18,920 bases of DNA, taken from contig SXJR01000061.1 of the NCBI GenBank assembly GCA_005779305.1, forward strand, positions 1 through 18,920, given 5' to 3'. The stretch comes from Myxococcales bacterium. GTDB lineage: Bacteria; Myxococcota_A; Polyangia; Haliangiales; Haliangiaceae. The notes below the pieces were generated by a model. It was not told where the DNA came from. It made no database searches and saw only the letters and a program-made list of their open reading frames with translations. Positions within the stretch are counted from its first letter, which is position 1, and the number at the start of each line of letters is the position of its first letter. The position numbers were made by a program, and so were the translations under genes. Below are positions 2,888 through 8,601 of this stretch, piece after piece.

Positions 2888-5413
2888 ATGGACGAGCGGA
2901 ATCAGAAGCGTGACCTCGTGCTTGCGCCGAGCGAGTACGCCTACATGCAAGACGTCACCAAGGGCATCATCAAGACGTACACCGGCCCGACGGTGATCAA
3001 CCCGACCGCGCAGGAGCGGCCGGTGGTCTTCAATCCTCAGAACAAACACTTCGAGGCGTGCACGCTCGAGCAGGCGGTGCAGCAGATCGCCATCGCGCCC
3101 GAGGGCTACTACGTCACGCTCAAGAACCCGTCGGCGAAGAACGATCATCCGGCGTCGGGCGGCGTCTACCCGTCGCCGGATCTCGAGGTCGGTCGCAAGA
3201 TCAACATCACCGGCCCGTGCTCGTTCGCGCTGTGGCCGGGACAGATGGTGAAGCTGGTCCCCGGCCACCACCTGCGCTCGAACCAGTACCTCGTGGTCCG
3301 CGTCTACAACGAGGACGAGGCCCGCAAGCACTGGAGCCAGGCGGTGATCAAGCCGGCCGGCGACGGTCCCGAGAGCACGGCGCCGATGGGCGGCGCGCCT
3401 CGCGACCTCACCGTCGGCAGGTTGTTCATCATCAAGGGCACCGACGTCTCGTTCTACATCCCGCCCACCGGCGTGGGCGTGGTCACCGACGAGAGCGGCT
3501 CGTACGTGCGCGACGCGCTCACCCTCGAGCGGCTCGAGTACTGCATCCTCGTCGACCAGAACGGCAAGAAGCGCTACGAGCGCGGCCCCCAGGTCGTGTT
3601 CCCCGAGCCGACCGAGACCTTCATCGCCCGCGACGGCGTGCGCAAGTACAAGGCCATCGAGCTGCAGGAGATCCAGGGCCTGCACGTCAAGGTCATCGCG
3701 CCCTACACCGAGGCCGGCCGCAGCTACCGCGAGGGCGACGAGCTGTTCATCACCGGCAAGGAGACCGCGATCTACTTCCCGCGCGAGGAGCACTCGATCG
3801 TCCGCTACGACGGCAAGGACAAGCACTTCGCCGTCGCCGTGCCGGCTGGCGAGGCCCGCTACGTCATGAACCGCAAGAGCGGCGAGATCCGCATGGTGCG
3901 GGGCCCGGCCATGCTCCTGCCCAACCCCGTCGACGACGTGATCGTGCGCCGCGTGCTCACCGATCGCGAGTGCGGCACCTGGTACCCGGGCAACGACGCC
4001 GTGCTCGCCTACAACCGCTCGCTGCGCCAGCTCGAGAGCGCGGCGCCGGTCGGCCGCGCCGGCGTGGTCTCGGAGAACGAGATCCAGAAGCAGCAGAAGA
4101 AGGCGCCGGCCGCGCAGCAGGTGGCGATGGGCGCCGCCGCGCCGGCCTCGCAGCAGGTCGCCGGCGAGGTGCTCGAGCGCGGCAACCAGTTCACCCAGCC
4201 GCGCACGGTGGTGCTCGACACCCGCTTCCAGGGCGTGCCGGCCATCAACGTCTGGGTCGGCTACGCGCTGATGGTGGTCGACAAGCAGGGCCACCGCCGC
4301 GTCGAGCAGGGCCCGGTCAACCTCCTGCTCGGCTACGACGAGACCCTCGAGGTCATCGAGCTGTCGACCGGCAAGCCCAAGTCGACCGACCGCCTGCTGC
4401 AGACCGTGTTCCTGCGCGTGCTCAACAACAAGGTCGGCGACATCTGCGTGGTCGAGACCAGCGACCACGTGCAGGTGACGCTCGAGTACTCGATGCGCGT
4501 CAACTTCACCGGCGACGCCAACCGCTGGTTCGAGGTCGAGAACTACGTCAAGTTCCTGTGCGACCACGTGCGCAGCGTGCTCAAGGGCGCGATCAAGAAG
4601 GTCTCGATCGAGCAGTTCTACGCCGGCTCGATCGACATCATCCGCGACGTCATGCTGGGCAAGGCCGAGAAGTCGGACAAGCCCGACAAGCCCGACGTGG
4701 TCCGGCCCGGCATGCGGTTCCCCGAGAACGGCATGCACGTCACCGACGTCGAGGTCCTCGAGGTCTCGATCGACGACGAGGCGATCTCCAACCTGCTCGG
4801 CGACGCCCAGCACGACGCCGTGCAGTCGAACATCAAGCTGATCGGCGCCCAGCGCGGGCTCGAGGTGGTGAAGAAGCAGGAGAACATCGCCCGCGAGACC
4901 GCGATCGCGCAGGCCGAGACCCGGCGCAAGCTGGCCGAGCTCGAGATCGAGGCGATCGCGGCCCGCTTCCGGGTCGCGCTGGCCGGCGTGCAGGGCGAGC
5001 TCGACGAGGCCAAGGCCCGCGAGGGCGCGGCGGTCGCGCGCAACGCCGCCGTCGACGTCGATCACAAGGCCAACCTGCGCCGCAGCGACGAGATCGAGGC
5101 GGCGGCGCTGACCACCGCCCGAGGCCGTCAGACCCTGGCCCTCGAGGCGCTCGCCGCCGAGGTCAGCGCGGTGGTCCAGCGCTTCGAGGCCGCGCAGGGC
5201 GGCTTCAGCGAGGCGCTGCTCGCGCTCTCGTCGCGCGAGACCCTGGCCAAGGTCGCCGAGGCCATGAGCGTCCAGTCCTTCGTCGGCGGCAAGACCCTCA
5301 CCGACGTCATCGACAAGGTCTTCGCCGGCACGCCGCTGGCCGGCCTCATGGACAAGGTCAAGGACCGCGTGGTCGGCGGCAACGGCGAAGCGCCGCGGTT
5401 GCCGGGCGCCTGA
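2888..5413 (+). CDS. Major vault protein (MVP) homolog, full length, 841 aa.
   Basis: A GGGGGGA Shine-Dalgarno lies 5 nt upstream of the ATG. The N-terminus shows MVP-repeat-like segments ([47 protein letters not shown]). The middle region aligns by eye with the eukaryotic MVP shoulder and cap region. [20 protein letters not shown] matches [57 protein letters not shown] matches [61 protein letters not shown] matches [22 protein letters not shown]. About 200 aa of Ala/Glu/Arg-rich coiled coil (cap-helix) follow. There is no signal peptide. The eukaryotic MVP comparison is from memory. Confidence 0.88.
   Translation: [841 protein letters not shown]
5348..5409 (+). repeat. Direct repeat copy 1. 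It is the last 62 nt of the MVP CDS ([21 protein letters not shown]) and is duplicated at 8521-8582.
   Basis: atggacaaggtcaaggaccgcgtggtcggcggcaacggcgaagcgccgcgg is identical for 51 nt in both copies. The next 11 nt differ at 2 positions (gttgccgggcg vs gctgccaggcg). Confidence 0.9.
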
Positions 5414-5452
5414 GCCGCAGCCGCACCCGCAGCCGCACCCGCACCCGCAACG
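5414..5452. repeat. C-rich simple repeat (gccgcagccgcacccgcagccgcacccgcacccgca) immediately after the MVP stop.
   Basis: Visible reiteration of a cagccgcacccg unit. Its composition resembles the C-rich repeats after the second MVP-end copy at 8651-8737. Confidence 0.6.
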
Positions 5453-5573
5453 GGTTGGCCAATTGGGGTGATGAGTCAGCCCTCCCCCGCGGTCGTCCGG
5501 GGCCCGCTCACCGTCGACGTCGAGTGCGCCGTCGGTTCGCAGCCGTCGGGTCCGCTCATCAAGCTCGAGTGAG

Positions 5574-8274: not shown

Positions 8275-8520
8275 GATGACTCCTGGCATGACGGCCGGGA
8301 GTGATCTTGTCGCTTCACGCGCGATCGGTCGCTGGCAGGACTCTACCCTCATCGGCACGCTGCGGAACCGCGCGCCGATCCGATTGCCACACTTGTCCTT
8401 TCACAACCTCCGGCGATCGTTCTCGCGATCGGTCGATTCTTTTCCGTCGAACGTGACAACAAAGATCTGAGCGATCACCAGATATGAACCCACACCAGTC
8501 GTGCTGGCTGCGTCGGACGC

Positions 8521-8601
8521 ATGGACAAGGTCAAGGACCGCGTGGTCGGCGGCAACGGCGAAGCGCCGCGGCTGCCAGGCGCGTCGACGCAGGAATCGTG
8601 A
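8521..8601 (+). pseudogene. 26-codon remnant, or second copy, of the MVP 3' end ([26 protein letters not shown]).
   Basis: Its first 62 nt are near-identical to MVP 5348-5409. A TGA lies in frame 12 codons upstream, so it is not part of a longer MVP-like ORF. Confidence 0.6.

Follow-up and report, generated by a model that had tools for sequence, protein, structure and literature searches.

Duplication of a gene end around an insert is usually taken to mark the past action of an integrase. The question raised by the locus described here is whether that reading applies to a block of extra DNA directly behind an MVP gene. The window, by which we mean the whole stretch of DNA analyzed, comprises 18,920 nt (contig SXJR01000061.1 of the Myxococcales assembly GCA_005779305.1). 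A first-pass annotation had proposed that the block was inserted into the 3' end of MVP and regenerated the gene end, in the manner of an att-site duplication. The features concerned are these:

2888 to 5413, plus strand: intact MVP homologue of 841 aa, matching Pfam MVP_shoulder (5.3e-26) and Vault_3 (1.3e-07).
5348 to 5409, plus strand: gene-attached repeat copy (copy 1), covering the last 21 MVP codons; the TGA stop lies at 5411-5413.
5414 to 5450, unstranded: (GCCGCA/CCCGCA)n hexamer microsatellite (TRF), directly 3' of the MVP stop.
5574 to 6029, minus strand: first cargo gene, 151 aa with four CxxC pairs (zinc-ribbon type), without a match in Pfam, NCBIfam or PHROG.
6030 to 6525, unstranded: non-coding spacer with a GC content of 0.726, in which gene callers put a 44-aa ORF.
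6526 to 8274, minus strand: second cargo gene, a 582-aa M6-like metalloprotease with a HELGH motif and a lipoprotein signal (…AAAAGC).
8275 to 8520, unstranded: low-GC non-coding stretch upstream of the protease gene, ending at the copy 2 junction.
8521 to 8582, plus strand: repeat copy 2, a detached remnant of the MVP tail.
8607 to 8655, unstranded: G+C-rich inverted repeat forming a strong hairpin, without a U run.
8650 to 8736, unstranded: (CCCGCCA)n heptamer / 27-34-nt microsatellite (TRF) of strain-variable length.
8738 to 9742, minus strand: convergent lipoprotein gene, 334 aa, the right conserved flank of the hot spot discussed below.

The near-perfect 62-bp duplication of the MVP end is present as first reported, with 5348-5409 and 8521-8582 identical at 60 of 62 positions and both mismatches in the final 11 nt. 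The longest exact core is 52 nt (5347-5398 on the copy 1 side). A wider alignment, 5341-5409 against 8514-8582, covers 69 nt at 94% identity, and BLAST aligns the two copies over 76 nt with one gap; homology is lost a few bases from the stop codon. Across 200 second-order Markov simulations of the window, no exact direct repeat longer than 19 nt arose by chance, and the MVP-tail pair is the sole long dispersed direct repeat in the window. The isolated 26-codon remnant with an in-frame stop upstream was also confirmed, the ORF running from an ATG at 8521 to a stop at 8599-8601 and being preceded by the in-frame stop at 8485-8487.

Since the source is metagenomic, a chimeric join at the short repeat has to be considered, and the first-pass annotation had itself named an assembly artefact as an outcome that would overturn its reading. 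The inserted genes were found on contigs of six assemblies from the same population (ERZ27257032, -33, -34 and -35, GCA_005801925.1 and GCA_005801785.1). Five independent assemblies span both copies in the same gene order; three of these, aligned over both copies, are 99.7-99.98% identical to the window, and the gene maps of the other two run from MVP to the lipoprotein gene. The sixth, GCA_005801785.1, has contigs that each cover one side of the locus. In addition, the "k141_" contig names indicate a k of 141, longer than the 52-nt exact repeat. An artefact of this kind is therefore hardly credible. An empty-site strain was sought by exact-protein look-up, and all contigs encoding the identical lipoprotein also held the insert; a metagenome scan for closer relatives returned none above 91%.

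The closest relatives available are five loci, L001-L005, to which MVP aligns full-length at ~90% amino acid identity. The lipoprotein gene has the same position in L002-L005, at 77-81% amino acid identity. The two stop codons are 3324 nt apart in the window (extra DNA at 5414-8737), while the gap is 20 nt in L003, 18 nt in L004 and 5 nt in L005. The predicted insertion at the MVP 3' end was thus borne out by empty sites in three of the five closest relatives, and the extra 3.3 kb is a lineage-specific insertion between two convergent conserved genes. The first-pass annotation had considered the contrary case of relatives with the same two genes and no duplication; neither the zinc-ribbon nor the M6 protein is encoded in any of 80 genome loci, all closest relatives included.

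In the remaining two relatives, L001 and L002, the gap is filled with other, unrelated cargo of ~3.4-3.6 kb, and there is no repeat (DUF222-HNH, DUF3224 and an AraC-type regulator in L001; MORN, cyclase and AAA_14-DUF4143 genes in L002). The gap between MVP and the lipoprotein gene is therefore a variable hot spot. It resembles known hot spots of gene gain in being a single interval between conserved genes that is empty in three relatives and elsewhere holds three unrelated cargos. However, turnover at such hot spots is usually ascribed to recombination within the flanking core genes, with no gene-end duplication left behind, whereas the window has one. The DUF222-HNH gene of L001 abuts the MVP stop and carries a 3' hexamer array, but DUF222-HNH genes were dropped as a cause of the hot spot, as they are generally not beside MVP; an ORF of L002 considered as an IS200/RayT-like transposase was not confirmed by Pfam.

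The alternative offered at first pass was a collapsed tandem MVP paralogue, in which a second, downstream MVP gene had been deleted save for its last 62 nt. The remnant does have the orientation of MVP, and in one related locus, L050, the MVP end is simply duplicated in tandem over 203 nt. However, the perfect 52-nt core would need a very recent duplicate, the relatives have just 5-20 nt at the site, and within 5414-8737 only the 23-residue tail matches MVP, even at E = 100. With that tail alone and a second MVP gene in 0 of 166 loci, a collapsed paralogue is very improbable.

Which of the two copies is the native gene end can be judged from the relatives. MVP ends in …PG(A/V)-stop or …GGA-stop in all five, and the TGAGCCG context of copy 1 is common to L001 and L002, with L003-L005 differing within it; the copy 2 end reads …PGASTQES-stop. 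As copy 1, unlike copy 2, agrees with the relatives in its end and stop context, it looks like the native MVP end, and the duplication would thus have left the native end on the gene. Nor is copy 2 at the edge of the extra DNA, as 155 nt (the hairpin and the heptamer microsatellite) lie between it and the lipoprotein stop, against just 5-20 nt between the two stops in relatives. The opposite assignment, with the remnant and hairpin as the original gene end, is not sustained by these comparisons. It had led to the expectation that MVP in relatives would be followed directly by the 8583-8737 sequence, but relatives lack those 155 nt, and the hairpin has no counterpart in them. The hairpin itself is real, with a folding energy of -34.3 kcal/mol against -18.4 +/- 3.1 in shuffles; it lacks a U run, was negative in terminator calling and is absent in relatives, and its interpretation as the original MVP terminator is not supported. 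An Rfam scan gave one chance-level match, to mir-641 (E = 0.55, 22.7 bits where the gathering score is 100).

If the duplication were an att site, an element with a copy of the MVP tail would have recombined with the gene end, its integrase being deleted later or acting in trans (CIME-like). Such integration is classically recognized by direct repeats that take in a gene 3' end, leaving one copy on a whole gene and the other as a detached remnant, as in the e14/icd/icdC layout, and the repeats of 52-62 nt seen here have this form; the perfect core with mismatches only near one end, and the empty sites in relatives, also favor it. Against it stands the search for mobility functions. Neither a recombinase nor a remnant of one was found in 5414-8737 with Pfam, NCBIfam, PHROG or PADLOC, covering the two genes and ten ORFs of the non-coding parts. 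No transposase was found in the insert either, which confirms the first-pass statement that integrase and transposase are absent, and no terminal inverted repeats were among the inverted pairs found. Positions 5410-8740 had no match in plasmid and phage DNA, the cargo had none in PADLOC or PHROGs, and a tRNA scan found no tRNA. When IntE and PinE seeds were compared with 13,050 ORFs of 165 loci, a search of low sensitivity, there was no significant match (best PinE E = 0.04). Likewise, the 8-10 kb downstream of MVP showed no integrase-bearing element in any of the 144 loci scanned for tail duplicates.

Like the insert in the window, the cryptic prophage e14 (and phage 21) in the icd gene of E. 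coli sits at a gene 3' end, leaves the gene intact and carries a second, detached gene tail at its far end; in E. coli K-12, e14 begins 165 nt ahead of the icd stop, which is also the length of icdC. However, e14 is 15.2 kb long with intE, xisE and phage genes, whereas the window insert is 3.3 kb without a recombinase or phage gene. Moreover, the gene-attached end at icd is supplied by the element and the original end survives as the remnant, while in the window the gene-attached copy looks native. Of the e14/icd-type features, the window thus has the gene-3'-end repeats and the unoccupied sites in relatives, but no recombinase was found between its repeats, and its detached copy does not look like the original end. 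CIMEs, or cis-mobilizable elements (for the definition, see PMC5704250), such as those at the fda 3' end of Streptococcus thermophilus, resemble the insert in being small islets with att-type direct repeats at a gene 3' end and no integrase or transfer genes of their own. A CIME, however, has its att sites in common with a cognate ICE or IME that uses the same target, and none was seen at MVP ends in 166 loci.

The cargo offers a second view of the insert's origin. Homologues of the zinc-ribbon protein (51-66% identity) were confined to myxobacterial-type MAGs and unassigned metagenome contigs, those with an assignment being Kofleriaceae and "Deltaproteobacteria". Where their surroundings were examined, these genes have a conserved nuo/acyltransferase context, and the window gene is a 58% paralogue of the nuo-context gene in the MAG of L001. 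The M6-type lipoprotein protease is orphan-like. It matches TIGR03296 at 9.5e-18, below the model cutoff, and its fn3 match at residues 465-533 is weak (E = 1.4e-4, 22.4 bits against a 25-bit cutoff). A word-based search for homologues returned the protein itself and one 30% match, a PDB sequence search gave no match, and the nearest cluster representatives in a full HMMER search were 44% and 39% identical. The donor of the window cargo was not traced, as the 44% relative, the best M6 match, has an unrelated gene context. Judged by the zinc-ribbon homologues and the lack of phage or plasmid matches, the cargo is made up of ordinary genes of the lineage, chromosomal DNA rather than a mobile-element genome.

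In the non-coding parts, neither 6030-6525 nor 8275-8520 had a DNA homologue in other loci or a Pfam match in its ORFs; the latter is presumably the protease promoter region. The lower GC and atypical codon usage noted at first pass hold in part. The insert (GC 0.676) is below its flanks (0.73-0.75), GC3 is modestly low in the M6 (0.837) and zinc-ribbon (0.888) genes against 0.90-0.975 in neighboring genes, and 8275-8513 falls to 0.59; as a whole, however, the insert is close to MVP itself (0.687).

Other loci hold similar arrangements, and in 2.2 Mb of related loci there are four independent cases: the window, the L058 family, L023 and L031. In L058, L112, L088, L171 and L175, MVP is followed by a 9.6-kb operon, WGR-DUF4132 / MoxR / DUF5682 / VWA / SWIM. 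The L058 operon lies between two copies, identical at 52/52 positions, of a segment comprising the MVP tail, the stop and 14 nt. Duplication lengths of 62 nt in the window and 52 nt in L058 are unlike the fixed-length target duplication of a transposon. The L058 insert is filled end to end by the five operon genes, with no integrase, excisionase or remnant. The same operon occurs at other chromosomal loci in relatives, the copy in L168 being 85.8% identical over 9.6 kb, and at the right junction of L058 the native SWIM end (…RLA) is fused to the MVP tail at CGCC(G). The L058 cargo is a copy of an ordinary chromosomal operon, whose native locus shares just 4-5 nt of microhomology at the junction. 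One related locus, L006, has a single repeat copy and no operon; its value as a pristine empty site for the L058 insert is weakened, as it nests among operon-bearing lineages. At two other genes, in L023 and L031, duplications of 88-98 nt of the gene 3' region flank cargo without a recombinase, the duplication being at the very gene end in L031 and ~150 nt before the stop in L023.

These cases bear on the att reading in both directions. The use of one gene end twice, in different lineages, speaks for it. So does the fact that the two L058 copies are identical to each other although 6 of 52 positions differ in the orthologous L088 copy; the two copies in one lineage appear to evolve in concert, which could reflect continuing recombination. 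On the other side are the lack of any recombinase in the 3.3-kb and 9.6-kb inserts, the native look of copy 1, the position of copy 2 away from the edge, and the L058 junction, at which microhomology also sets that case apart from CIMEs. For these reasons, and lacking any phage or plasmid likeness, the att-site duplication proposed at first pass was not supported, and we regard it as possible but rather unlikely. The evidence from the window and L058 points away from an integrase footprint; the insert reflects ordinary plasticity of the genome, and nothing in it suggests a self-mobile element.

The explanation we prefer, with about even confidence, is a recombinase-independent (illegitimate) insertion that duplicated its target and survived since MVP stayed intact. 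Foreign or ectopic DNA would have been joined at or just past the MVP stop, and its other end ~62 nt upstream, which duplicated a small piece of the target. This may have come about by template switching during replication, by end joining, or by homology-facilitated illegitimate recombination anchored on the MVP end. In a gap of 5-20 nt, nearly any insertion would harm one of the genes; a duplication of the MVP tail leaves MVP complete, and such an event is thus of the kind that survives. We infer the manner of joining from the better-resolved L058 lineage. At the right junction of the window there is only an imperfect 5/7 match, CGGACGC against CGGCCTC. Homology-facilitated illegitimate recombination and FoSTeS/MMBIR insert non-homologous DNA without a recombinase at short junction microhomology, can copy chromosomal segments and duplicate the flanking target, and are documented in transformable bacteria and eukaryotes. 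To our knowledge, they are undemonstrated in Myxococcota, and we know of no single-step mechanism shown to give 50-100-nt target duplications in these bacteria. Such microhomology is seen at the junction of the L058 analogue, the one case in which it could be checked.

Two features of the repeat count against illegitimate insertion. The mismatches near the repeat end also fit an att- or Campbell-type exchange between diverged alleles, and simple decay of a target duplication would leave a more even pattern than a perfect 52-nt core beside a stop region that matches poorly. In a Campbell-type single crossover, circular or one-end-anchored DNA of a related strain (MVP tail, hexamer array and cargo) would have recombined with the resident tail. 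This would need no recombinase and would account for the relative-like stop context and L001-like hexamer array of copy 1, for the different continuation of copy 2, and for the mismatches as donor/recipient divergence. L001 and L002, which carry cargo directly after the MVP stop without a duplication, could represent donors. Window and L001 share the hexamer array directly after the stop yet are not sister lineages, which hints at DNA exchange between relatives. However, a prior event would be needed to make the circle or fragment, no relative with the zinc-ribbon/M6 cargo was found, RecA-dependent exchange is close to its lower length limit at 52-62 nt, and a linear donor homologous on both sides would replace the locus without a duplication. 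We therefore consider a single crossover distinctly unlikely.

The locus illustrates that a tightly packed convergent gene pair can accept new genes and lose neither, and the MVP/lipoprotein junction is a variable spot in the neighborhood of a bacterial vault-like gene. It is conceivable, if doubtful, that recombinase-independent (or trans-acting) placement of ordinary chromosomal gene blocks at gene 3' ends, with target duplications of 50-100 nt and an intact target, recurs in Kofleriaceae and related Myxococcota. Island finders that equate a direct repeat plus a gene 3' end with an att site would misfile such islets. If common in Myxococcota, the pattern would help to flag gene gain by a route independent of mobile elements.

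On the preferred explanation, the hairpin and the two microsatellites beside the copies are later or accompanying additions. Both microsatellites vary among strains: the hexamer array is 18 nt longer in L081 and L083, and ~50 nt of the heptamer microsatellite are absent in L083.

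The only long dispersed direct repeat in the window pairs 5341-5409 with 8514-8582 (69 nt, 94% identity; BLAST stretches it to 76 nt with one gap). Its convincing portion is 5348-5409 against 8521-8582, where 60 of 62 positions are identical and the exact core measures 52 nt, compared with at most 19 nt for exact direct repeats in composition-matched simulated sequences. The duplication of the 3' end of the major vault protein (MVP) gene, proposed in the first-pass annotation, is thereby confirmed, and the reading of the ORFs agrees that the second copy is a detached remnant. 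The features concerned are as follows.

2888-5413: MVP homologue, 841 aa, Pfam MVP_shoulder and Vault_3
5348-5409: repeat copy 1, last 21 codons of the MVP homologue
8521-8582: repeat copy 2, isolated remnant ORF of 26 residues with an in-frame stop 12 codons upstream
8607-8655: hairpin 3' of copy 2, -34.3 kcal/mol against -18.4 +/- 3.1 for shuffles, lacking a U run
8650-8736: heptamer microsatellite, next after the hairpin

An assembly artefact can be rejected as the origin of the repeat. Contigs of six assemblies encode identical MVP and lipoprotein proteins, with the cargo genes present on every such contig as far as it reaches, and both repeat copies are spanned in five assemblies. Three contigs align to the window at 99.7-99.98% identity, both copies included. 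The only differences among these assemblies are the lengths of two microsatellites: in the near-identical assemblies L081 and L083 the hexamer array after the MVP stop (5414-5450) exceeds that of the window by 18 nt, and in L083 the heptamer array falls short by about 50 nt.

Between the copies lie two minus-strand genes, of the zinc-ribbon and M6-like metalloprotease types that had been annotated.

Minus strand: 151-aa protein with four CxxC pairs, no family match
Minus strand: M6-like metalloprotease of 582 aa; HELGH motif, lipoprotein signal, and an fn3 match that is weak and below threshold
Spacer of the cargo: 496 nt
Stretch upstream of the protease gene: 239 nt, 0.59 GC

Nothing resembling a recombinase, transposase, phage or plasmid gene, tRNA or known RNA was found anywhere in the 3.3-kb insert, in agreement with the absence of an integrase or transposase noted earlier. 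The description of the insert as lower in GC with atypical codon usage holds in part: the cargo genes are modestly low in GC3 (0.837 and 0.888 against 0.90-0.975) and the 239-nt stretch is AT-richer, but the overall GC of 0.676 equals that of MVP (0.687). Homologues of the zinc-ribbon protein (51-66%) occur on metagenome and MAG contigs, the few named ones being from Kofleriaceae or 'Deltaproteobacteria'. Two genomes, including the MAG to which the close relative L001 belongs, have the homologue within a conserved nuo/acyltransferase neighbourhood whose similarity to the window is limited to the zinc-ribbon ORF. The protease is nearly an orphan, with best cluster representatives at 44% and 39% identity, the former in an unrelated context; the two genes are no conserved pair.

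Scanning genomes yielded 80 MVP loci, the majority from Kofleriaceae and Haliangiales MAGs. In the five closest (L001-L005), MVP is about 90% identical, and the upstream HEAT-cyclophilin gene and the downstream lipoprotein gene are kept in all; a VIT/vWA gene comes next in L002-L004, while the contigs of L001 and L005 stop short of that position. Just 20, 18 and 5 nt separate the MVP stop from that of the convergent lipoprotein gene in L003, L004 and L005, respectively, against 3324 nt in the window; this supports an insertion beside the MVP 3' end. L001 and L002 hold about 3.4-3.6 kb in this gap, with genes unrelated to the window's (DUF222-HNH, DUF3224 and an AraC-type regulator in L001; MORN, cyclase and AAA_14-DUF4143 in L002) and without the MVP-tail repeat. 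Because the gap is empty in three relatives and filled with unrelated cargo in the other two, it is a variable hot spot, with cargo in the window that is lineage-specific. A closer relative or a polymorphic empty site was sought and not found. As to the cargo of the relatives, the AAA_14-DUF4143 ATPase (L002 14333-15487) matches the PADLOC candidate defence family PDC-S01 (7.8e-95). The DUF222-HNH endonuclease genes of L001 (12594-14330), L085 (4400-6700) and L086 (8475-10000) have a conserved upstream region of ~300 nt in common, with long hexamer microsatellites 3' of those in L001 and L085, and look like a repeated, possibly mobile unit.

Copy 2 and its hairpin had been taken for the original MVP end and terminator, displaced by an att-type integration. 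In all five closest relatives MVP ends in ...PG(A/V) or ...GGA, and the TGAGCCG context after copy 1 is common to L001 and L002. Copy 2 has no stop at that position (TCGA where L004 has TGA) and runs on for five codons, and the 155 nt between it and the edge of the extra DNA have no counterpart in relatives, so a displaced original end is disfavoured. An integrase mechanism is accordingly not supported, given also the lack of a recombinase in the 3.3 kb. The main rival is nevertheless an att-type integration whose integrase has been lost or works in trans; in its favour are the perfect repeat core with mismatches confined near one end, and the hexamer array found after the MVP stop in the window as well as in L001, non-sister lineages with different cargo. 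Across 2.25 Mb of related loci, (GCCGCA)n arrays number only about six, including those directly after the MVP stop in the window (5414-5450) and L001 (12536-12585).

Scanning 144 MVP loci for tail duplicates revealed a parallel case in L058, where MVP has 82% identity to its homologue in the window. There, the final 38 nt of the MVP gene, stop included, make up with 14 further nt a 52-nt segment that is repeated perfectly 9.6 kb downstream (12461-12512 and 22078-22129), bracketing a five-gene operon (WGR-DUF4132, MoxR-type AAA, DUF5682, VWA_CoxE and SWIM) that contains no recombinase. The arrangement recurs in L112, L088, L171 and L175, the right-hand copy having diverged in the last two. L006 has a single repeat copy and no operon; since MVP identities nest it among operon-bearing lineages, it may represent precise loss, not an ancestral empty site. 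Relatives also carry the operon elsewhere in the chromosome; examples are L174 and L168, the latter belonging to the MAG that contains L045 and showing 85.8% identity across 9.6 kb. In its native form the SWIM protein terminates in ...RLA(DG)*, and in L058 the MVP tail is fused after ...ERLA, with only CGCC(G) in common at the junction, such that the SWIM gene now terminates with the last 12 codons of MVP. Such a junction is the signature of an ordinary chromosomal segment joined illegitimately through microhomology, and is unlike the product of recombination at a pre-existing attachment site. Concerted evolution is suggested by the identity of the two L058 copies, set against 6 differences in 52 positions for the orthologous left copy of L088.

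The extra DNA in the window is best read as an insertion that was independent of a recombinase and copied about 62 nt of its target, or perhaps as many as about 77 nt should the degenerate match beyond the stop be genuine. With 5-20 nt between the stops, an event regenerating the MVP end would be one of the few leaving both genes intact; the gene tail would be involved because selection keeps events that leave the MVP and lipoprotein genes whole. Possible routes are template switching, end joining, or anchored illegitimate recombination with a relative's DNA. The att-type alternative also keeps weight in that the junction at which microhomology was read is that of L058. A collapsed tandem MVP paralogue, also suggested initially, is effectively excluded. 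The window thus has a small gene islet, specific to its lineage, at a variable hot spot, a further example of an already known kind of genome plasticity.

Across 2.2 Mb of related loci, few direct repeats are both long and dispersed; two further genes show the layout of the two MVP cases, again with no recombinase in the cargo.

L023/L140 (L023 4712-4809 and 8189-8286): 98-nt repeat bracketing some 3.5 kb of cargo, located about 150 nt short of the stop in a gene for a 376-aa protein
L031 (9291-9378 and 12200-12287): 88-nt repeat bracketing some 2.9 kb of cargo, located at the 3' end of a gene of the CotH family

L050 (12310-12720) shows a simple tandem duplication, with units of about 203 nt that comprise the last ~57 nt of MVP, the stop and downstream DNA and are about 86% identical. 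Once the window is set aside to allow for ascertainment, these events show no significant excess at the MVP end. The chance that the window's islet reflects a recurrent route of gene gain in Myxococcota, independent of mobile elements, is modest.

Bacterial MVP homologues have already been described (bioRxiv 10.1101/872010). The neighbourhood in the window is vault-like (64-1902, 2888-5413 and 9810-12263): near the MVP homologue are a protein with VIT, proprotein-convertase P and vWA domains and a HEAT-repeat cyclophilin, an arrangement syntenic in L002-L004. VIT and vWA domains are also found in the eukaryotic vault PARP. Further along, a perfect 9-nt tandem repeat, TCACGCCGG x7 (13631-13693), occupies the 5' end of the minus-strand ORF 13062-13688, in frame, giving a run of VTG repeats.
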